Of a stretch of DNA of 11,137 bases, positions 2 to 11,137 are shown in pieces. This stretch comes from Candidatus Micrarchaeota archaeon (lineage in GTDB: Archaea > Micrarchaeota > Micrarchaeia > Anstonellales > Bilamarchaeaceae): assembly GCA_040754495.1 (NCBI GenBank), contig JBFMCO010000049.1:1-11137 (forward strand). Direction: 5' to 3'. Made by a program: the position numbers and the translations under genes. Position 1 is the stretch's first letter. Every line of letters starts with the position of its first letter. Below the pieces are notes generated by a model, which was not told the DNA's origin, did not search any database, and was given only the letters and a program-made list of their open reading frames with translations.

Positions 2-1165
2 TCGAAACAAATAACCGCTCCGCCAAAAGTCCCGGAGCCGGAAGAACCCGCACAGCCAAAAGCAGAAGCACCGAAACCGGCTATCAAAACCGAACCGGCA
101 AAACCGACCCCGGCTCTTGCGCCAGAATCCGAACCGGCCCCGCCCGAAGCGGCTGTGCCCGAACCAAAACCGGCCCCCCTGCCGCCCGCGAAACCGGAAG
201 CGGTCCAGCCAAAACCCGAAACCCGGGACCGGAGACCACCTGAGCCTGCAGGCGTCGAGGAGAAGCCCAGGGAAAGGCTCAAGCTCGGTCTCGTGGGCGC
301 GGTCAAAAGCATCATAACGCGGGAAGTGGAGATAAGCGAAAATGACGTGAAGGGGATGCTTGATGGCCTGGAGCTGGAGCTGCTTGAGGCGGACGTGGAG
401 CTCGGCGTGGCCGAGGGAATAAAGGCCGAGCTGGAAGGCAGGCTTGTCGGCTCGAAGGTGAAAAAGGGCGAGCTTCACTCATTCGTGTCAGGCTCGATAA
501 AGGAGACGCTCATATCCATCCTGAGCAACGACAAGGCGTTCGACATCGTGGAGAGGGTGGATGCGGGCGAGAAGCCCGTGAAAATAATGTTCATAGGCAT
601 AAACGGCGCGGGCAAGACCACGACAATAGCGAAGGTGGCGAGGCTCCTCCAGGCAAGAGGCAGGAAGCCGGTCCTTGCGGCAGCGGACACATTCAGGGCA
701 GCGGCAATCGAGCAGATGGGCGTGCACGCGGAGAGGCTCGGCCTGAAGATGATAAAGCGGGAATACGGCAGCGACCCGACCTCTGTGGCCTATGACGCGG
801 TGAATTACGCGAAGGCCCACGGCATGGACGCGGTCCTCATAGACACGGCCGGAAGGCAGGACACGAACATCAGCCTGCTGAACGAGATAAAGAAGATGGA
901 CCGCGTGATAAAGCCGGACGCGAAGATATACGTCGGGGAGAGCATAGCCGGGAACGCCATCCTGGAGCAGATAGCCGCCTTCAACCGGGAGGTCGGGCTT
1001 GACGCGGTCATACTTACAAAGCTCGACTGCGACCCGAAAGGGGGCACCATGCTTTCGATAAACAAGGCGACCGGAGTCCCCATCATCTATGTCGGGGTGG
1101 GCCAGGGCTATGACGATTTGGAGCGCTTCGACCCGGAGCGCATGGTTTCGCGCATCTTATCTTAG
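2..1165 (+). CDS. ftsY: Signal recognition particle receptor GTPase FtsY, archaeal type (5'-partial; true start lies upstream of the window)
   Basis: The frame is open from nt 2 (SKQITAPPKVPEPEEPAQPKAEAPKP...), so the track's start at 155 is an internal GTG. SRP-GTPase motifs: LLEADV in the N domain, G1 GINGAGKTTTIAK (596-), DTFRAAAIEQ, G3 DTAGR (842-856), G4 TKLD (1016-1027), KGG, and C-terminal GVGQGYDDL. There is no C-terminal M domain, so this is the receptor and not SRP54. 'KREYGSDPTSVAYDAV' resembles archaeal FtsY. Stop is TAG at 1163-1165. Confidence 0.97.
   Translation, partial: SKQITAPPKVPEPEEPAQPKAEAPKPAIKTEPAKPTPALAPESEPAPPEAAVPEPKPAPLPPAKPEAVQPKPETRDRRPPEPAGVEEKPRERLKLGLVGAVKSIITREVEISENDVKGMLDGLELELLEADVELGVAEGIKAELEGRLVGSKVKKGELHSFVSGSIKETLISILSNDKAFDIVERVDAGEKPVKIMFIGINGAGKTTTIAKVARLLQARGRKPVLAAADTFRAAAIEQMGVHAERLGLKMIKREYGSDPTSVAYDAVNYAKAHGMDAVLIDTAGRQDTNISLLNEIKKMDRVIKPDAKIYVGESIAGNAILEQIAAFNREVGLDAVILTKLDCDPKGGTMLSINKATGVPIIYVGVGQGYDDLERFDPERMVSRILS
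211..241 (+). repeat. Degenerate heptamer tandem repeat (AAAA-CCCGAAA-CCCGGGA-CCGGAGA-CCACCT) embedded in frame in the ftsY linker
   Basis: Three 7-nt units read directly from the sequence, encoding KPETRDRRPP. Ungapped 23/31 identity to the reverse complement of 5425-5455. Confidence 0.6.
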
Positions 1166-1259: not shown

Positions 1260-4200
1260 ATGGCGGGAGACGATACGACGGGGATGAAACAGGCTCAGAC
1301 GAAAGACAGCGGCGCAGCGGCTGCCGGAAGGGGAAGGAAGGCGCTGGAGTGGACCAAGGGGCACGTGCCGTTCACGCCGTGGAGGAAGGCTTACAAGGAG
1401 GAGAAGAAGAGGGGCGGCATAGAGGAGGAAGAGCGCATCAGGCACGAGACCAGGCAGAAGCTCCAGGGAAACGGCGAGCAGGCCCAGTCCGGCGCGGGCC
1501 CGAAGGTCAATCCCAACGTCGACGTCAAGGCCACGAGGGGCGAGGACCTCACCACGTTCAACAGGCATTTCCTGGACGCCATCAGGCGCGGCCAGAGCAG
1601 GACCGAGCAGGCTGGCACTGCTGACGCGCTCATCCGCGAGGTCGTCACCAATGACCAGTTCATAGACGCTGTCGCGAACGGGACGATAAAGACGCCGCTC
1701 GAGCAGGTCGATTCCGAGTACGCCAAGGACATGGCGAGGAAGAGGGGCGGCCTTGCCGACAGCCTGAGGAGGGCCAAGCACTTCAAGGAGTTCATGATAG
1801 GCGAGCTGACCGCCCAGGAGCTCGACGTACTTTTCGTCACCATGCTCGGCACCGCCGAGGAAGACGAGGGCGAAGAGCGCAAGAAGAAAAAGGGAGCGGA
1901 AGACGAGAGGGACAAGGGAAAGAAGGGCGCGGTGGCGCTGTGGAACGGCACGGCGTGGCCGGAGGAGGTCCCGAGGCCGCACGAGGCATTCTTCGTCTTC
2001 CTCGAGAGCCTTGCGATGAGGCTTCGGAGCACTCCGGAGGAGCAGGGAAACTTCATCGGCATGGTGTGCAAGGACCTCTCGTGGAGGAGGACGTTCACCG
2101 AGTCCGGGGAGCAGACGCTGCGCCTGCTCGTGGACGCTGCATTCATAAACGACTGGCTTTACTCGAAATCTTCTTATCCTACGGACAAGGCCGTCGAGAG
2201 CTTCCATTCGCTCGCGGCGAGCGCGCTAAGCACGCCCACTGGCGAGATGCACCCGGTGCTGAAGATGCCGGGCATCGGCTACGACCAGGGATACCAGAAG
2301 GCCCTGGCGGAGAAGAAGCTGTGGATAGGCGAGGCGGAGCAGTGGGTGGCCCAGGCCACGCAGGGCCTGGAGCAGGCAACGGCTGCTGTCGCGGTCGCTG
2401 AAAGCAGGGCCGAGAGCGCAAAGGCCGAGTACCAGAGGGTGCTCGGCCTGGCCAAGAAGGCCGAAGAGAAGGGAAGCGTAACGCTGAGAGGCGGGAAGGT
2501 CCTCAAGCCCGGCGACGCGGAGCTGACGGGCGCACTCGCAGCCGCAGAGGGCGGCGTCGCGAAGGCGAACCAGGAGCTCCACAAGGCCAGGCAGTGGGAG
2601 CTTAACGCCCAGAACGCGCTCGGGAAGGCGAGGAAGGAGCTTTCCCAGCGCGAAACAGAGGTGGCTTCTTTCGAGAAGGACTCCAACCCGCAGGCGCTTG
2701 CCAAGGAGCTGGCGCGGCACTTCAAGTCCCTCCTCGAGGCGAATGGCGAGGTCAACGTTTCCCTGGACGATATTCCGGCGCGCATGGCGCCGAGGCTGCC
2801 GAACCCGGTCGTGGACAAGCTCGTGGAGCAGGCTACTGCGCTCATCAGCGAGAGGGAGGAGTTCGCTCCAGTGTTCCTCGGAACGCAGATGGTGGACGCG
2901 TCCGCGCCGGACGAGGGCAAGAAGGGCTCGTCATCGTCCACGCAGATAGTGAGGGACATAATCGGATATCGGCTTCCTGATTTCGAGGCGAGGGTGAATG
3001 AATTCGATGCCGCGGTGGAAGCGGCGGAGCTGCCGGCGGAAGCCAAGGAGCCGCTGCGCGGCGTAGGGAGGGGGCTCAAGCACTTCGGGGTGCCGGCCGC
3101 TTTCCTGAGCGAGCAGGTCTCCAAGGTGAGGACCGCGCACTCGGAACCGCTGCGCAAGGCCGCGCAGGTCGCCATAAAGAGCCTGAAGGAAAGGAGCTAC
3201 AGGAACCTCGCAACCCCGACCGACGCTGTGAAGGTAATCGCGAGGATGACCTACGAGGGCCGCACAGGAGAGGTCCCCCCGGGAAGCGCGAACAAAGAGG
3301 GCAAGTGGAAGCGCGCATGGCACTGGATCAGGTACCAGCTTTTCACCGGCGAGTCGTGGAAGAACAAGGGGCTGTGGCTCTACAAGCAGACTTACGCGGA
3401 CGATTTCGACGACCTCCGCTACAGGAACTGGAAGCAGAGGAGGTCGGGACGCAGGCCGGACGGCACGCCTTACCGGAGGAGCACGCCCAGATGGATGGAC
3501 GGCCTCTGGGGCGTCACGTGGAAGACGTACGTCCTTGCCATGGCGGTCGGCTACATGGCCGGTCAGGAGCGGGCCAAATGGTACTGGCCGCCTTCCTGGC
3601 CCGCGCCTGCCGTGAGGTATGTGGCGAACGAGGCGTTCAATGCCGGCTGGGGACCGTACCGCACGAGCGAGCACAGGTACCTTATGCCATGGACGCTCCT
3701 TGCGCCCCTCGAATCCGAGAGGGAGATAAAGCTCGTGATACACGACAACTGGGACATCCCTGCGAGGCTGGCCACGCGCGGAGACACGTACTACCGGAAC
3801 ACCTACGGCGTCGGCACGCACAGGCTGGAATCCGAGCAGAACGATTCCGGCATGAGGGCGAGGCTCACATGGCTCCAGCAGCACCCGGACGTCATGAGGT
3901 TCTTCCAGGAGCGCACCACGCTGCGCCAGGACGTCACCGTCAGGTACCTGGAGGAGAACCCGAACACGTGCAGCACGAGGCAGAGGCCGATCCCGCAGAC
4001 GTGCGAGCACGAGGGGCTCGGCCTGCGCACAAGCGAACGGCTGCAGGCGTACACGCCTTCCCAGCGGGACCCGAGGTGGCAGCCCGGAATGAAGGTCTGC
4101 TGCACGATTGAGGTGAGCAGCAGGCGGGTGCCGGACGGCCTCAAGCTGAACACGCGCACGTCCGACCAGTTCGTGGACCTGCTCATGGCCGCGGAAAGGG

Positions 4201-5390
4201 GAGGTACGGCCGTGAATTACGCCTACCTCAATAGCGGGCAGAACAGGGCAAGGTGGGTCCAGGAGTGGTTCCTGGTGACGCCGGGCGAGGCTGACATAAT
4301 CAATAACTACAAAATAACCGTGAGGGACAACGTCCGCTTCCTGCTCATGCAGGGGGCGGATGCCGGAGGCCATCTCCTGCCGCGCTGCGCGCAGGAGGCG
4401 CTCTCGCCGGAATACCTGCAGGAGGCGCACAGGGACGAGTTCGTTAACGCCTGGAGGGCGGCGCTCGTCTCAAGGGGAGCGCAGGCCCAGCCGCCGGTGA
4501 CGGTGGAGCCGCTCACCCAGGACCTCACAAGGGAGGACCTCGAGGCCGCGTTCAACTCGGTCAGGGATGCGAACCGCGGGTGGTTCACGGACAGGACGCA
4601 CCAGTACGAGCGCAGGCAGGTGCTCCAGCAGGTGCCGGAGCTGCAGCTCCAGACCGACACCGCAATAGACGTCCTCGTGGCGCAGCCGGACATACTCGCC
4701 CTCGTGAGGGAGTTCAGGTCGCCTGCACGCTACGGCATAACGCAGGGAAGGGCCGACGAGTTCGTCCAGAGGCTGGACCAGCACAAGCGCGCGGGCGGAA
4801 GACTGCTCGAATTCAACCCGTTCTCGACCGAGACCGGGGCAGGCTCGCTGGTACAGCAGGCGGTGAACGTGGACGGCCTGCTCTTCGACAGGGAGACCGA
4901 GACGCTGCACGCGGCGGACGGCCAGTCCAGGGAAGGCGATGCAGGCGCGCAGTCCGCAGCACCCGCGAGGGTCCCGCTGCCGGAATACTCGCAGGACGTG
5001 CGGCGCTTCTACGAGAACCAGGAGAACGAGCCCTTCAGGAACATGGTCGAGGGCGCGCTGAGCGTCCTGCTCGAGGACAGGCAGTTCGGCGCGACTACGC
5101 GCGCAGTGCTCGCCAACAGCTTCGGGAACGACAGGGCGAGGATGGAGGGCACCATAAAGGCGCAGGTCTACTCGTTCTTCACGAGCACGAGGGAGGCCGA
5201 CGTCTCCATAAGGAGGGGCTACCGATTCACGATGAGTGGCGAGGGTCCCGCCATGGTGGTGAGGCCCTCGAGGACCGACGGCCCGGGCATGATGGAGGCT
5301 TCCAGGAACATCCAGAGCTATGTGAGGCAGTACGTGGGCAGCCTCCAGCAGAGGCCTGCACCGGCCGCTCCTGCAGCCTCGTCCAGGTAA
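1260..5390 (+). CDS. Large hypothetical protein (1376 aa), probable membrane-anchored protein with an N-terminal coiled-coil region and a C-terminal, probably extracytoplasmic region
   Basis: Long ORF with SD site and AGG/AAG/GAG-rich codon usage like ftsY. Coiled-coil-like helices at about aa 342-473. Trp-rich zone at aa 683-831 around the weakly hydrophobic segment GLWGVTWKTYVLAMAVGYMAG (aa 748-768). Cys cluster at aa 904-948. No recognisable catalytic motif or signal peptide. The CDS is secure; the product is inferred. Confidence 0.9.
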   Translation: MAGDDTTGMKQAQTKDSGAAAAGRGRKALEWTKGHVPFTPWRKAYKEEKKRGGIEEEERIRHETRQKLQGNGEQAQSGAGPKVNPNVDVKATRGEDLTTFNRHFLDAIRRGQSRTEQAGTADALIREVVTNDQFIDAVANGTIKTPLEQVDSEYAKDMARKRGGLADSLRRAKHFKEFMIGELTAQELDVLFVTMLGTAEEDEGEERKKKKGAEDERDKGKKGAVALWNGTAWPEEVPRPHEAFFVFLESLAMRLRSTPEEQGNFIGMVCKDLSWRRTFTESGEQTLRLLVDAAFINDWLYSKSSYPTDKAVESFHSLAASALSTPTGEMHPVLKMPGIGYDQGYQKALAEKKLWIGEAEQWVAQATQGLEQATAAVAVAESRAESAKAEYQRVLGLAKKAEEKGSVTLRGGKVLKPGDAELTGALAAAEGGVAKANQELHKARQWELNAQNALGKARKELSQRETEVASFEKDSNPQALAKELARHFKSLLEANGEVNVSLDDIPARMAPRLPNPVVDKLVEQATALISEREEFAPVFLGTQMVDASAPDEGKKGSSSSTQIVRDIIGYRLPDFEARVNEFDAAVEAAELPAEAKEPLRGVGRGLKHFGVPAAFLSEQVSKVRTAHSEPLRKAAQVAIKSLKERSYRNLATPTDAVKVIARMTYEGRTGEVPPGSANKEGKWKRAWHWIRYQLFTGESWKNKGLWLYKQTYADDFDDLRYRNWKQRRSGRRPDGTPYRRSTPRWMDGLWGVTWKTYVLAMAVGYMAGQERAKWYWPPSWPAPAVRYVANEAFNAGWGPYRTSEHRYLMPWTLLAPLESEREIKLVIHDNWDIPARLATRGDTYYRNTYGVGTHRLESEQNDSGMRARLTWLQQHPDVMRFFQERTTLRQDVTVRYLEENPNTCSTRQRPIPQTCEHEGLGLRTSERLQAYTPSQRDPRWQPGMKVCCTIEVSSRRVPDGLKLNTRTSDQFVDLLMAAERGGTAVNYAYLNSGQNRARWVQEWFLVTPGEADIINNYKITVRDNVRFLLMQGADAGGHLLPRCAQEALSPEYLQEAHRDEFVNAWRAALVSRGAQAQPPVTVEPLTQDLTREDLEAAFNSVRDANRGWFTDRTHQYERRQVLQQVPELQLQTDTAIDVLVAQPDILALVREFRSPARYGITQGRADEFVQRLDQHKRAGGRLLEFNPFSTETGAGSLVQQAVNVDGLLFDRETETLHAADGQSREGDAGAQSAAPARVPLPEYSQDVRRFYENQENEPFRNMVEGALSVLLEDRQFGATTRAVLANSFGNDRARMEGTIKAQVYSFFTSTREADVSIRRGYRFTMSGEGPAMVVRPSRTDGPGMMEASRNIQSYVRQYVGSLQQRPAPAAPAASSR

Positions 5391-5514: not shown

Positions 5515-5542
5515 ATTTGCCCGCCTGAGGTATCTTAGTATA

Positions 5543-5551
5543 TTATATAAA
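5543..5551 (+). promoter_or_regulatory. Putative archaeal TATA box (TTATATAAA) for the 5582/5900 operon
   Basis: Good match to a TATA box, ending about 30 nt before ATG 5582, which would give a short leader containing GGTG. Confidence 0.65.
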
Positions 5552-5581: not shown

Positions 5582-5890
5582 ATGCCTAAAAAAGGGGCGA
5601 AAGATTCTGTGAAAAAGGTTCCTGTGAAGGCGGACACGGCTGCTCTTGAGGAGCAGACGCTGGCAAAAGTCGAGCGGACGCTGAGGACGCTCGGTGATTT
5701 CCTCTCAAGATGGGACTCCGCCGAGACCAAGCCGGACAGCATGTATCCGGAAGTCGTGAAGATGAGGAGGTTCCGCGACATGCTCCTCTCGTGGAAGCAG
5801 GATGCCGAGAAGGCCCGCGGCAGGAGCGACGAGAAGGGCCGCATCAGGAGGCTCAGGGATTTCGTGGTGCTCTGCAAGATATACTCATGA
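5582..5890 (+). CDS. Small basic helical hypothetical protein (102 aa), probably cytoplasmic; candidate chaperone or immunity partner of the downstream giant protein
   Basis: Has TATA and GGTG signals upstream, typical codon usage and amphipathic helices (LAKVERTLRTLGDFLSRW; VVKMRRFRDMLLSWKQ; RIRRLRDFVVLCKIY). Its stop overlaps the SD site of the next gene. No family recognised. Confidence 0.8.
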   Translation: MPKKGAKDSVKKVPVKADTAALEEQTLAKVERTLRTLGDFLSRWDSAETKPDSMYPEVVKMRRFRDMLLSWKQDAEKARGRSDEKGRIRRLRDFVVLCKIYS

Positions 5891-8800: not shown

Positions 8801-11137
8801 CAGACGAGGCAGACGCTGGAGACGCAGAGGACCTCCACGATAGCAAGGCTCAACGCGATGAGGTATACGACCGAGGAGGTCGTGACGGTGGAGGGCGGAC
8901 GGTCCGCGCTCGACGATTATGCCTCGCTGGTTTCCTCGATGGAGCGCGAGCGCAGGATATCCATAGGCATGGCGCAGGTCGGCGAGGAAGTCCGGCTGAA
9001 CGATGAGTACAGGAAGGCGATTGCAGGGGAGAGCGGAGACATCCGGAACCGGACGGTAGGGCTGCTTGACGAGTGCAAGCGCCTGCTCGAAGAGTGCCGC
9101 ACCGCGGTGAGGGAAGGCAGGTTCGAGGACGCGGTCCGGCTCTACGACCGGGCCATAGAATCGCGCGGCTCCGCGCTGCAGACTTATTGGGCCGAGAACG
9201 TGCTCAACTTCTATTACGTTTCCGCGGCGCACCGCGCTTCGCACGCGGACCGCCCGGACCCGAGGTTCTTCCCGGCTCTCCGGCTCCAGCAGGAGCAGAT
9301 GGAGATACAGCCGTACCTTGACGCGCACCACCAGATTTTCAGGGAGCTCCTTTTCGGAAGCGTCAGCGGCGACCCGCAGGCGTATGCGGAGAGGATGCAG
9401 CGCAGGCTCCAGGGGACCGTGCAGATTGAGGTTTCCATATTCGCGGTGCCCTCAGACGCGACAAGCCAGGTGCTCGACGATTACCGGGCCGAGCAGCGCA
9501 GCGTCCGCCAGTCGGTTTACGCTGCGTGGAGGCTTGAGGACCAGGCCGTGCGGATGAGCCCGGGTGCCGAGCGCGAATCGCTCATGGCAAGGGCGCAGAG
9601 GGAGTTCACGGACGCGCAGGCGCAGATACAGGAGATGCAGAGGAGGGCCGAGAGGAACAGGTTCATCGCAAAGGTCGCGCTTATCGTGGTCGGCATAGCG
9701 GCCGCGTTCATCCCGGTCGTGGGCCCGTTCATCTCGGGCGGCATATTCATAGGGATGTCCATAGACCAGATAGCGACCGAGTACAGGAGGGACGGCCATG
9801 CCTCTGCCGAATCGTGGGCCATGCTCGGGCTGACCGTAGTCACGCTGGGCTTTGCCGGCGTGGGCGCCGCGTTCCGCGGGCTTGCCACCACGGCAAGGAC
9901 CGGTGGAGAGGCAATGGTGCTTGCAGGGAACATCGCGAGGGCGGAGCAGCTGCTGCTCACCGCCAGCAGATACTCGAGCGTCAGCAGGGCATTCAGCGGG
10001 ACCGCGCTCGCCGTAGGGCTTGGCATGAGCGGGTACATGGAAATCGGCGCGTACAACCTTTACCGGCAGGCCCAGCGCGAGACAGACCCGGTCAGGAAGG
10101 AGGCGCTCATGAGGGAAGCCGTGCTCATGGCCGGAATGGGGCTTTTCCCGATTGTCCATATAGGCTCATCGCTCGCCTACCGGGGTTTCACCGCCCCGCC
10201 GAGGGCGAGGCTTAGCACCGCCCTCGCCGAGGTTTCGCCTGTCCGCGAGGCCGCGCGCGTGGCTGCCGAAGAGCCGGTCGCGGCCAGGGTGCGGAGGCCG
10301 GACGGATTGTTCGACCTCCTTACCAGGCTCAGGAGCAGCGACGCCGCGGTGCGCACTGCCGCCGAGGCCGAGCTTGCCGCGCTCCCGGAGCCGGTGCGCG
10401 TCGGAATCGGCCAGCTCGCCGCGAACGTAAGGGTAGGCGGCGGACCGACATACCTCAACCTGACAAGAGCCTTGCAGACCGGGGAGCTCACGCCCTTCGC
10501 GAGGGCGGAGCTTGAAGGCGCAATCGGGATGCTGGCTGCCGAAGGCCCGAGGCCTCCGACATCACCGACCCGCGGGCCTGGAGGAGGCGGGCCGAGGACG
10601 ACGAGGCCGGAGGTGGATTCGGCAGGGCTCGCGGACGCTTTCGGGCTCCGCCAGATTCTTGCGGACTTGCTCGTGCCGGACGGGGCTCCTGCGCAGGCGC
10701 TTGCGAGGCGCTCTTCGGCCCGCGCAATGCTTGAGAGGATAAGGGGCGATGCGCGCACCGCGCCGATAGCTGACATGATAGACAATCTCATAGGCAACCC
10801 TGAGCGCGGGATTGCCGGCAGGGAGGCGTTCAGGACCGCGGTCGGCAGCGACACGCCATACGAACTGCTCGACCCGTTCACGACGAGGGCCCTTGAGAGG
10901 GCCGCCGGCCAGATAGAGGGCATGCTGAGGCCGCAGGTCATGAGGGCCGCGGTAGGCCAGACGCAGCCGGTGGAGGAAGCCGCACAGCCGCAGACGCTCG
11001 GCGGGCAGGGCGCGGCTGAAGGCATCGGCGGCACGATTCCCACAAGGGCTTCAGCAGGCGAAGGCGGGAGGCCGGGTGCCGGAGGCGGCGAAGTCGTGCC
11101 CGGACGCGTCTCGCCAGCCGAAGGCGGAGGAGGCCAG
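5900..11137 (+). CDS. Giant hypothetical protein (at least 1746 aa, 3'-partial): helical-repeat rod, coiled coil, multi-helix hydrophobic (membrane/translocation-like) domain and tandem helical modules
   Basis: Hand translation from ATG 5900 (MTGQAMRERQGQEAVEAPREAVVPRV...) stays open to the last base (...VSPAEGGGGQ). It is missing from the ORF track, presumably because no stop occurs in the window. SD site present, codon usage matches the other genes. Hydrophobic segments at 9674-9763, 9812-9874, 9989-10039 and 10118-10180. Confidence 0.93.
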   Translation, partial: MTGQAMRERQGQEAVEAPREAVVPRVADEGEGLRRQREQAAATIAQLQQASRVIRVPGDVRAEIESRIRVLDAMRQAGVPILQDRYNNEIDYISGILRQALRASDDNRSTDALRILESATAMMAFLGRIYEVELGIAIRGVPPGLENGEQTWTDLLDSMEVVLFDIGTANSRRAETVLSAGRLIFEFGTTYNVDDIAIKGELNRVVNFIIDRGVRKGTTADARAAQAYTARDARADEREIATFRRFIESASRGLGEERVALLTGWRQDLETRIGQLGAQERTRALLETLRGDIDALLVRLRNERAVRDVTDQEVREIENRYRMLSGQEPLLSSEQRQDEVRSSAVELRGTARTVREGTAEWFGQKALDALARGERELAGLAVAMGILERTAAAVRRRGSDYLPPDSYRLVMELLAARGQLTPVLASRLANDISVAALAADIARLGSENPVRGRGVARERAQRINDAVAEARRLLERGDIEGVRTLLDMSSQYAAMVSARRGRDWTGSSEMEAALDAQMRGVDSRQRFEDALTRYNFSQQTTEFRQRLEGWGRRLEQKQLAVRAIEHVESLVGQGNFQEAQSTMLRLLMFADSVELLGVRRGGKIESLNPRYDGSGMERALGAFIAGQSQVEGRGAETLFMESFASTQRNAVDLEATRLADLARTNRWTIGKDRIDAALQAARDRAAQGDFEGAFRIIRYVKQFYGEAAAAIPAQGGQPAVPARSAGWRYQLARREGAGFREGRERMLDAIRMESDATAPERREAAARMFEAATMRIAECEMLISNYAEKRSMYMGETPLASGHPAGRLLLGYAQDRTPVYIDLAIVRDYETRHARDTSLGSGPTLAQLFTQLETAANNGDVSGYNRTLEAIFGRYDEGTQGMAGGRFWLVAQRAARMQMIDSAITQLNSMGGFLGQLPNYEALPNDARRLAEIRALVDSGASKVDLAQALARNTRERQEEVAAGTLTQTRQTLETQRTSTIARLNAMRYTTEEVVTVEGGRSALDDYASLVSSMERERRISIGMAQVGEEVRLNDEYRKAIAGESGDIRNRTVGLLDECKRLLEECRTAVREGRFEDAVRLYDRAIESRGSALQTYWAENVLNFYYVSAAHRASHADRPDPRFFPALRLQQEQMEIQPYLDAHHQIFRELLFGSVSGDPQAYAERMQRRLQGTVQIEVSIFAVPSDATSQVLDDYRAEQRSVRQSVYAAWRLEDQAVRMSPGAERESLMARAQREFTDAQAQIQEMQRRAERNRFIAKVALIVVGIAAAFIPVVGPFISGGIFIGMSIDQIATEYRRDGHASAESWAMLGLTVVTLGFAGVGAAFRGLATTARTGGEAMVLAGNIARAEQLLLTASRYSSVSRAFSGTALAVGLGMSGYMEIGAYNLYRQAQRETDPVRKEALMREAVLMAGMGLFPIVHIGSSLAYRGFTAPPRARLSTALAEVSPVREAARVAAEEPVAARVRRPDGLFDLLTRLRSSDAAVRTAAEAELAALPEPVRVGIGQLAANVRVGGGPTYLNLTRALQTGELTPFARAELEGAIGMLAAEGPRPPTSPTRGPGGGGPRTTRPEVDSAGLADAFGLRQILADLLVPDGAPAQALARRSSARAMLERIRGDARTAPIADMIDNLIGNPERGIAGREAFRTAVGSDTPYELLDPFTTRALERAAGQIEGMLRPQVMRAAVGQTQPVEEAAQPQTLGGQGAAEGIGGTIPTRASAGEGGRPGAGGGEVVPGRVSPAEGGGGQ

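Follow-up and report, generated by a model that had tools for sequence, protein, structure and literature searches.

The window analyzed here, 11,137 bases in length, is the whole of contig C49 (JBFMCO010000049.1) from the genome of a Candidatus Micrarchaeota archaeon (G000; assembly GCA_040754495.1; 1.63 Mb in 72 contigs, 80% complete). It carries, in this order, the 3′ part of ftsY, a partner gene for an orphan protein of 1376 residues (1260-5390, plus strand, syntenic in related genomes), a small helper gene for a Lys-rich protein of 102 residues (5582-5890, plus strand) and, directly 3′ of the helper, a giant open reading frame termed P0001 (5900-11137, plus strand). P0001 encodes an orphan protein, here called the giant, of which the first 1746 codons are present; the frame reaches the contig end and is hence incomplete. 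Its lost C-terminal half was sought by tblastn on the other contigs of the genome and was not found there. The giant contains 0.7% Lys and 12.1% Arg; an Arg content of 12% is found in both arms, and the N-terminus lacks a signal peptide. Between these arms, at residues ~1256-1427, lies a hydrophobic module which, as judged from the sequence, is a real and conserved membrane-helix domain and the defining core of a family of giant proteins of Micrarchaeota, which are tiny archaea living as symbionts; no description of this family was found in the literature.

An earlier note on this DNA had assigned nucleotides 9584-10180, which encode residues 1229-1427 of the giant, to a toxin- or translocator-like membrane-insertion module. 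The hydrophobic segments quoted there are present at residues 1259-1288, 1305-1325, 1364-1380 and 1407-1427. The residues of the quoted leading string were likewise correct, but this string (ESLMARAQ...) starts at residue 1226, 9 nt before the start given for the region; furthermore, ...ERNRF does not run directly into VALIV... as claimed, three residues (IAK) being located in between.

Four charge-free helical segments, H1 to H4, were delineated within residues 1256-1427, the first of them with a Pro-x-x-Gly break; all features of the module lie on the plus strand. The polar or amphipathic start of the long helix leading into H1a comprises residues 1223-1255 (9566-9664) and belongs to an AlphaFold2 helix of residues 1223-1268 with a predicted local distance difference test (pLDDT) score >90. 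H1 (residues 1256-1288; 9665-9763) consists of H1a (1256-1271), the break P1272-x-x-G1275 and H1b (1276-1288). Within H1, the 30 residues 1259-1288 contain no Asp, Glu, Lys, Arg or His and include P1272 and P1276. Loop 1 (residues 1289-1304; 9764-9811) is acidic, with a mean net charge of -1.6 in the family, and holds the motif TEYxxxGxxSxExW. H2 (residues 1305-1325; 9812-9874) consists of 21 apolar residues, which corresponds to transmembrane length. It is followed by the basic polar tip of a long H2/H3 hairpin (residues 1326-1363; 9875-9988; AlphaFold2; mean net charge +2.1 in the family) and by H3 (residues 1364-1380; 9989-10039), which is Gly-rich, weakly apolar (19-residue hydropathy 1.03) and in register with H2. 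Loop 3 (residues 1381-1406; 10040-10117) is about neutral by charge count. H4 (residues 1407-1427; 10118-10180) carries mid-helix both P1417, which is nearly invariant in the family alignments, and the conserved H1420. Aromatic residues are found at the segment ends, namely W1306, Y1379, Trp or Phe at position 1255 and Trp or Tyr at position 1428.

Upon shuffling the protein 2000 times, 18 shuffles matched the peak hydropathy of 2.56 and 74 matched the 30-residue charge-free run; the hydrophobicity is moderately unusual if judged from composition alone. A stronger argument that the feature is real comes from its conservation across homologues. A word-index search yielded six full-length relatives of 2801-3048 residues, and an exhaustive HMMER search of 1.84 billion cluster representatives yielded 48 relatives. 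About 38 of the latter have one module near the middle of a protein of 1,400-3,260 residues, the remainder being short fragments; full-length relatives comprise 2,700-3,250 residues. In roughly one third of the HMMER relatives the best-matching stretch starts at residues 1235-1240, that is, at the start of the module, which is the part most widely alignable and most widely conserved across the giant family. In the seven closest full-length homologues it is the sole hydrophobic region. Averaged over 46 homologues, H1 to H3 contain ≤0.4 charged residues per segment and H4 about 0.6, as compared to 4-6 in the loops.

The alignments also pointed to individual residues. Only P1272, G1299 and P1417 are conserved in ≥90% of the sequences in the family alignments; hence, the Pro of the FIPVVGP break emphasized earlier is indeed nearly invariant. 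In alignment A1, T1293, E1294, G1299, S1302, E1304 and W1306 are invariant, and the TEYxxxGxxSxExW loop after H1 is, on these alignments, the most conserved motif and the signature of the giant family. All named homologues belong to Candidatus Micrarchaeota or Micrarchaeia (DPANN archaea). With this query, the giants turned up in a single GTDB family (22 of 76 genomes) and in none of 324 genomes searched from elsewhere in the phylum. Alignability along the family drops to 33% after the module and returns to 65-70% farther on; an architecture with a polymorphic C-terminal toxin, which had been considered, is borne out only in part.

AlphaFold2 models were built with family alignments for residues 1000-1549 (pLDDT 89.0, predicted template-modelling score 0.70) and residues 1215-1450 (pLDDT 88.4). 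The same long helices appeared in both models and comprise residues 1223-1268, 1275-1298, 1303-1341, 1345-1393, 1397-1431 and 1434-1445. The polar start of the first of them had been described as a coiled coil; the model instead shows one continuous 46-residue helix passing from polar into apolar sequence, and its best heptad register is weakly hydrophobic. The packing of the module was derived from helix boundaries and from the ranges aligned in fold searches. In this model, H2 and H3 would form a single hairpin of ~55-70 Å length with a basic polar tip, the apolar stretches of which are in register, with residues 1305-1325 opposite ~1362-1382. The hydrophobic helices pointed out before are real, and the model has the look of a conventional polytopic helix bundle, an outcome which the earlier note had named as refuting its interpretation.

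Pfam and NCBIfam were scanned with the giant and nine of its relatives and also with the neighbours and helpers; nothing relevant turned up, a GDSL lipase in a syntenic gene farther downstream being the sole match. Pfam-A scans at E ≤0.1 or E ≤0.01 linked neither P0001 nor any of nine full-length relatives to the families of the diphtheria toxin T domain, the botulinum neurotoxin (BoNT) translocation domain or the TcdA/TcdB pore-forming region. Searches of PDB sequences with profiles A1 and A3 (E ≤1) and with the module alone as a single sequence (E ≤10) gave only chance matches to designed or coiled proteins, and no toxin chain was returned. Foldseek searches with the 550-residue and 236-residue models gave no match below E 0.18, the best being E 0.18-0.22. 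VIA-align was run with the same models against 48,161 chains and aligned only the H2/H3 hairpin, with generic matches of Z ≤10.8, whereas its own noise level for helical models is Z ~13. The top matches were hairpins of ESCRT-III, PspA and Vipp1 (Z 8.9-10.8 over 75-98 residues at a root-mean-square deviation, rmsd, of 2.1-3.6); here only the hairpin aligns, half of it is apolar in the giant, and neither a Snf7 nor a PspA_IM30 Pfam match was obtained. The alpha-pore-forming proteins XaxA (Z 8.8 over a 74-residue hairpin) and AhlB (Z 9.1 at rmsd 14.6) were likewise generic matches under the helical noise level. Diphtheria T, BoNT translocation and TcdA/TcdB domains were in neither the Foldseek nor the VIA-align lists, an absence which does not exclude a shared fold. 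The translocator SctE (IpaB/SipB/YopB) had no Pfam or NCBIfam match in the giant; it did not occur in the fold-search lists either, which again does not exclude a shared fold, and the helper matched neither TPR, the class II chaperone type of SctE, nor another family. The nearest named ESM-Atlas cluster was PT-TG (0.85, 91 shared features), a value under the reliability level of the tool; PT-TG identity was rejected, as a search of the complete genome with PF14449 stayed empty at E ≤1, although control genomes responded. PT-TG was likewise missing from the fold-search lists.

No kinship of the module with the translocation domains of bacterial toxins is therefore detectable, and the proposed likeness to toxins and translocators was recovered neither by Pfam, NCBIfam and PDB profiles nor by Foldseek, VIA-align and PF14449. 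Its resemblance to diphtheria toxin and BoNT comes down to the four-residue motif hydrophobic-Pro-x-x-Gly, which is no sign of kinship. In general outline the module does resemble diphtheria T, BoNT HN, the clostridial toxin delivery domain, SctE and PT-TG, in which, too, extensive soluble regions of a big protein flank an apolar helical hairpin that turns at Pro/Gly. It differs from them by four or five segments and by the conserved acidic TEYxxxGxxSxExW loop, which is not known to have a match in those toxins.

As a reference for the segments we took 938 transmembrane segments, which belong to 110 polytopic proteins encoded in this genome. The hydropathies of H1, H2 and H4 correspond to the 93rd, 51st and 38th percentile of this set. 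With its charge-free segments and with H1, H2 and H4 in the hydropathy range of transmembrane helices, the module looks like a conventional polytopic alpha-helical membrane domain, and it almost certainly embeds in a lipid bilayer. Counting H1 as one span, Lys plus Arg average 8.5 in N-flank, tip and C-flank as compared to 4.3 in loops 1 and 3, and the mean net charge alternates along N-flank, loop 1, tip, loop 3 and C-flank (+0.35, -1.57, +2.13, -0.48, +0.76). This pattern fits the positive-inside rule for a predicted four-span arrangement with both termini inside (N-in/C-in). The module had been thought not to be an ordinary anchor in the membrane of its own cell; both the ordinary transmembrane hydrophobicity of H1, H2 and H4 and the distribution of Lys and Arg speak for such an anchor. 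Insertion into a target membrane had been deduced from the position of the helices 1250 residues after a signal-less N-terminus. The conclusion is not compelling, since transmembrane helices inside a protein can insert while they emerge from the ribosome.

The genes around P0001 were also analyzed. Helper and giant are translationally coupled; the stop codon TGA of the helper gene overlaps a ribosome-binding site, GAGGTG, which lies 10 nt ahead of the ATG of the giant. An AT-rich TATA-like box, ATATTATATA (5540-5549, plus strand), lies ~33-42 nt upstream of the helper ATG and is likely the archaeal TATA promoter of a helper-giant operon. The gene order is conserved in related genomes: a cluster of ribosomal-protein and prefoldin genes is followed by ftsY, a gene for a protein of 1300-1460 residues, a helper of ~100 residues and a giant. 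As this locus is fixed next to ftsY although the giants are only 30-34% identical, it is inherited vertically. Helper orthologues are located directly upstream of giant-family members in loci L002, L003, L004 and L005; in L003, no helper was called before the first giant, and the helper precedes the second, tandem copy. Further giants and a GDSL-lipase protein often lie 3′ in the syntenic clusters.

The helper family (~100 residues) has ten paralogues in the genome, most of which end 3-13 nt before a large open reading frame or overlap its start. Besides the window, they are found in G000 at C72:9645-10073, C42:3106-3456, C42:26389-26739, C22:19804-20175, C65:2185-2613 and C31:48820-49188 and, on the minus strand, at C55:18739-19041, C55:17219-17539 and C40:4577-4873. 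Their C-terminal motif (R)L(R/E)(D/E)F..(I/L)C..Y is conserved. The cargo frames of the ten helpers range from 366 to 6841 residues, and about seven of the ten begin, by eye, similarly to M(G)GQ..ER(R/Q).(E/D). As cargoes without any hydrophobic segment are also paired with a helper, the helper is not a chaperone of transmembrane helices. The cargoes have a mosaic composition. The largest cargo (C22:20178-40700, 6841 residues) matches, with its residues 1146-1924, the helical repeats of the window giant (residues 336-1093) and contains the module at residues ~2131-2290; in its C-terminal 4439 residues, Pfam detected neither a kinase nor any other family at E ≤0.01. Central hydrophobic segments were found in three more giants, namely C42:3466-21906 (residues ~2024-2185), C42:27110-46706 (residues ~2350-2430) and C57:78-11879 (residues ~1607-1685). 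The 6147-residue giant of C42 is related to the C57 giant (E 2e-17), and both have relatives among frames of 4,500-7,000 residues in sister genomes. They share a second module composed of a helix, an L(A/S)PxTGG turn, a helix, an EM(Y/R)xxGxxW loop and a further helix. An hhalign comparison suggests a possible relationship of this second module with the module of the window (P 0.0012, probability 19.5%).

A further property of these loci is the scarcity of Lys. Such lysine deserts comprise the giant and its orthologues as well as further proteins of the clusters, among them the GDSL-lipase protein encoded downstream, whereas the helpers are Lys-rich. The partner protein contains 8.1% Lys in residues 1-755 but 1.2% in residues 769-1376; in all four orthologues this switch occurs at ~residue 760 (near window position 3540), at a weakly hydrophobic, Trp-rich segment, GLWGVTWKTYVLAMAVGYMAG. 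A mere effect of GC content was ruled out, since GC at third codon positions (GC3) is equal in the two halves (0.85 and 0.88). Lysine deserts as a mark of Sec export were ruled out as well: proteins with signal-peptide-like N-termini are not Lys-poor and have a median K/(K+R) of 0.46 as compared to 0.41 for soluble proteins. Furthermore, full-length giants end in a stretch of ~100-130 residues that is homologous to the C-terminal end of the neighbouring family of 1300-1460 residues (28-40% identity, E 1e-6 to 1e-17). This shared domain is located at window ~4975-5340 (partner residues 1239-1359), in residues 2695-2816 of L003:10001-18478 and in residues 2720-2853 of L004:10001-18565; in L002, it was called as a separate frame of 213 residues overlapping the end of the giant. 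It could be a docking or sorting domain.

For insertion route, number of spans, membrane and function, we infer the following scheme. H1 and H2 would be recognized on leaving the ribosome like any transmembrane helix, by the signal recognition particle (SRP) and FtsY, and passed on to Sec or a YidC-type insertase, and the module would enter the cytoplasmic membrane of the archaeon. The end state would be a four-span bundle of H1, kinked at Pro-x-x-Gly, followed by H2, H3 and H4. Both the N-arm, consisting of 1250 residues with helical repeats, and the C-arm of ~1400 residues would be cytoplasmic; outside the cell, only the acidic TEYxxxGxxSxExW loop and loop 3, both of them short, would be exposed. 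In this way the module would hold a very large cytoplasmic scaffold at the membrane, perhaps where the host is contacted. Exporting the arms would be costly, as there is no signal peptide and both are Arg-rich. In secreted bacterial transmembrane effectors, the helices are mostly just below the SRP threshold or masked by a chaperone (Krampen et al. 2018, PMC6110835); by this rule, nothing predicts that the module escapes the membrane-targeting route of its own cell. Several observations weigh against this scheme. H3 remains below the hydropathy range of the transmembrane segments of the genome, and none of the segments is more than marginally hydrophobic in the distant homologues. Whether H1 forms a hairpin or a single span was judged on sequence arguments alone; of these, the chemistry of the break favours a hairpin with arms of 13-16 residues. 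In homologues, the break tolerates Glu, Lys, Gln, Asn, His, PGGG and indels of 1-3 residues and is followed by Trp, Tyr or Phe, as would be expected of an exposed turn at the interface rather than of a mid-span position. If H1 were a hairpin, the module would have five segments, N-arm and C-arm would lie on opposite sides, and the bias of Lys plus Arg is gone (6.4 vs 6.4). Finally, the context is reminiscent of effectors, with its family of helpers, the coupled starts, the mosaic make-up of the cargoes and the lysine deserts. Insertion into the archaeon's own membrane, at least at first, is the reading that we tentatively prefer, although we hold it with slightly less than even confidence; it is the chemistry of the H1 turn, pointing the other way, that keeps our estimate for the four-span form at this level.

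The same context would be explained if the giant were an exported effector or translocator, leaving the cell by an unknown route that involves the helper and the shared N-terminal motif, and if the module inserted into the membrane of the host. Five segments would then place the N-arm outside and the C-arm in the host cytoplasm, with the module as anchor or conduit for the C-arm; this agrees with the turn chemistry of H1. The association of helper paralogues with large frames, the similar GGQ..ER(R/Q).(E/D) openings of their cargoes, the presence of both repeat region and module in the 6841-residue giant and the lysine desert (0.1-0.7% Lys), which is kept in orthologues, together with the sharp Lys switch of the neighbouring gene at equal GC3, all point in this direction, as does the weak lead to PT-TG. 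Two papers (PMC10665810, PMC13696103) discuss lysine deserts as an evasion of Lys-directed tagging. This context, resembling that of chaperone-effector pairs, keeps delivery in consideration as a possible, though somewhat doubtful, explanation. Against it stand the failure of sequence and fold comparisons to reveal similarity with a translocation domain of any kind, the vertical inheritance of the locus with a conserved C-region, rather than polymorphic tips, in most members, and the fact that the helper also accompanies cargoes without a module and hence is not a chaperone of transmembrane helices; moreover, we know of no characterized archaeal system that exports proteins of 3,000 residues. 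The giant resembles effectors with transmembrane domains from the secretion systems of types III and IV (T3SS, T4SS) in being signal-less, in having few closely spaced transmembrane helices and in adjoining a small partner gene. It differs in that the giants are archaeal, 10-30 times larger and without homology found or a secretion machine identified, in that H1 exceeds the hydrophobicity of the T3SS rule (it is marginal in distant homologues, though) and in that the helper also serves cargoes devoid of transmembrane helices. A two-step variant would have the protein first reside in the membrane of the producer and be extracted afterwards, as are transmembrane effectors of the Legionella T4bSS. 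In the two-step secretion of SidF-type effectors (Malmsheimer et al. 2024, PMC11602083), an intermediate in the inner membrane has C-in topology and short outer loops, and small chaperones as well as a signal at the C-terminus take part; the predicted C-in topology of the giant, its short outer loops and its conserved, shared C-terminal domain parallel this model (PMC11602083). By analogy, such a pathway could reconcile residence in the own membrane with delivery. The most far-reaching version, in which the module is the insertion device of an undescribed archaeal delivery system that uses helpers and a shared N-terminal address to send Lys-free mosaic giants of 3,000-7,000 residues into or across the membrane of a host archaeon, appears unlikely to us; here, the second, possibly related hairpin module LAPxTGG ... 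EM(Y/R)xxGxxW of the other giants of this genome would serve the same purpose.

The short arms of H1 (13-16 residues around the conserved Pro-x-x-Gly turn) would also suit a monotopic wedge that dips into one leaflet from the cytoplasmic side, perhaps together with H2/H3, and tethers or bends membranes. This mode of insertion is that of reticulon-type hairpins and, in dynamin- and mitofusin-like proteins, of the paddle or central hairpin. Mitofusin- and atlastin-type proteins and bacterial dynamin-like proteins are likewise large and signal-less, with long helical stalks and a hydrophobic hairpin in mid-protein, and the giant shares the long, stalk-like hairpins and the central position of the hydrophobic unit between two huge signal-less arms. 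The best fold matches, too, were hairpins of membrane-remodelling proteins. However, these matches cover one generic hairpin within the helical noise, H2 and H4 have with 21 residues the length of a full span, and neither a GTPase or reticulon family (Pfam, NCBIfam) nor a Snf7/PspA signal was detected in the giant. We regard a wedge as distinctly improbable. Even less probable is that the apolar helices never enter a membrane and instead are buried as the core of a soluble helical assembly or serve as its oligomerization interface. The giant is helical throughout, with much Ala and Gly; when its composition is shuffled, about two windows exceed a hydropathy of 1.5 by chance, and the marginal hydrophobicity of distant homologues would agree with such a core. 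Yet helices of soluble bundles are amphipathic, as the rest of the giant appears to be, whereas here stretches of 17-33 residues are charge-free on every helical face, likewise in 46 sequences. They are bordered by aromatic residues and Arg and reach a hydropathy of up to 2.56, and no other stretch of the giant reaches the hydropathy threshold.

To our knowledge, no delivery machinery is known for DPANN archaea, and how they attach to hosts and exchange material is a major open question. The module is the one fixed landmark of an orphan giant family, and giants and sister giants occupy several per cent of a roughly 2-Mb genome. Knowing the membrane and orientation of the module would separate cytoplasmic contact-site scaffolds from exported effectors; being short (about 180-240 residues), confidently modeled and conserved, it provides a practical handle for topology, localization and bilayer experiments. 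Under our preferred reading, the module would be no more than a membrane anchor of a new family. Among DPANN archaea, SPEARE and other giant proteins are also very large and lineage-specific, come from host-dependent nano-archaea and were proposed to act in host contact. SPEARE proteins reportedly carry recognizable protease, adhesion and nuclease domains; in the giant family, in contrast, no domain is recognizable and the central membrane module is the sole landmark.

Some features of the clusters deserve mention in their own right. The GDSL lipase/acylhydrolase protein 3′ of the giants (L002:19177-21681; L003:27667-28478) comprises ~800-830 residues, is a lysine desert and matches PF13472 (E 3e-18); a lipase is a notable finding in an organism presumed to depend on host lipids. 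In L004, a nucleotidyltransferase/HEPN gene pair resembling a toxin-antitoxin system (4132-5107) is located between ftsY and the first large gene, which shows that the site downstream of ftsY tolerates insertions. Finally, the FtsY encoded at the start of the window has a long N-terminal extension (window 2-300) of low complexity, rich in Pro, Glu, Ala and Lys, which precedes the SRP54_N and GTPase domains.

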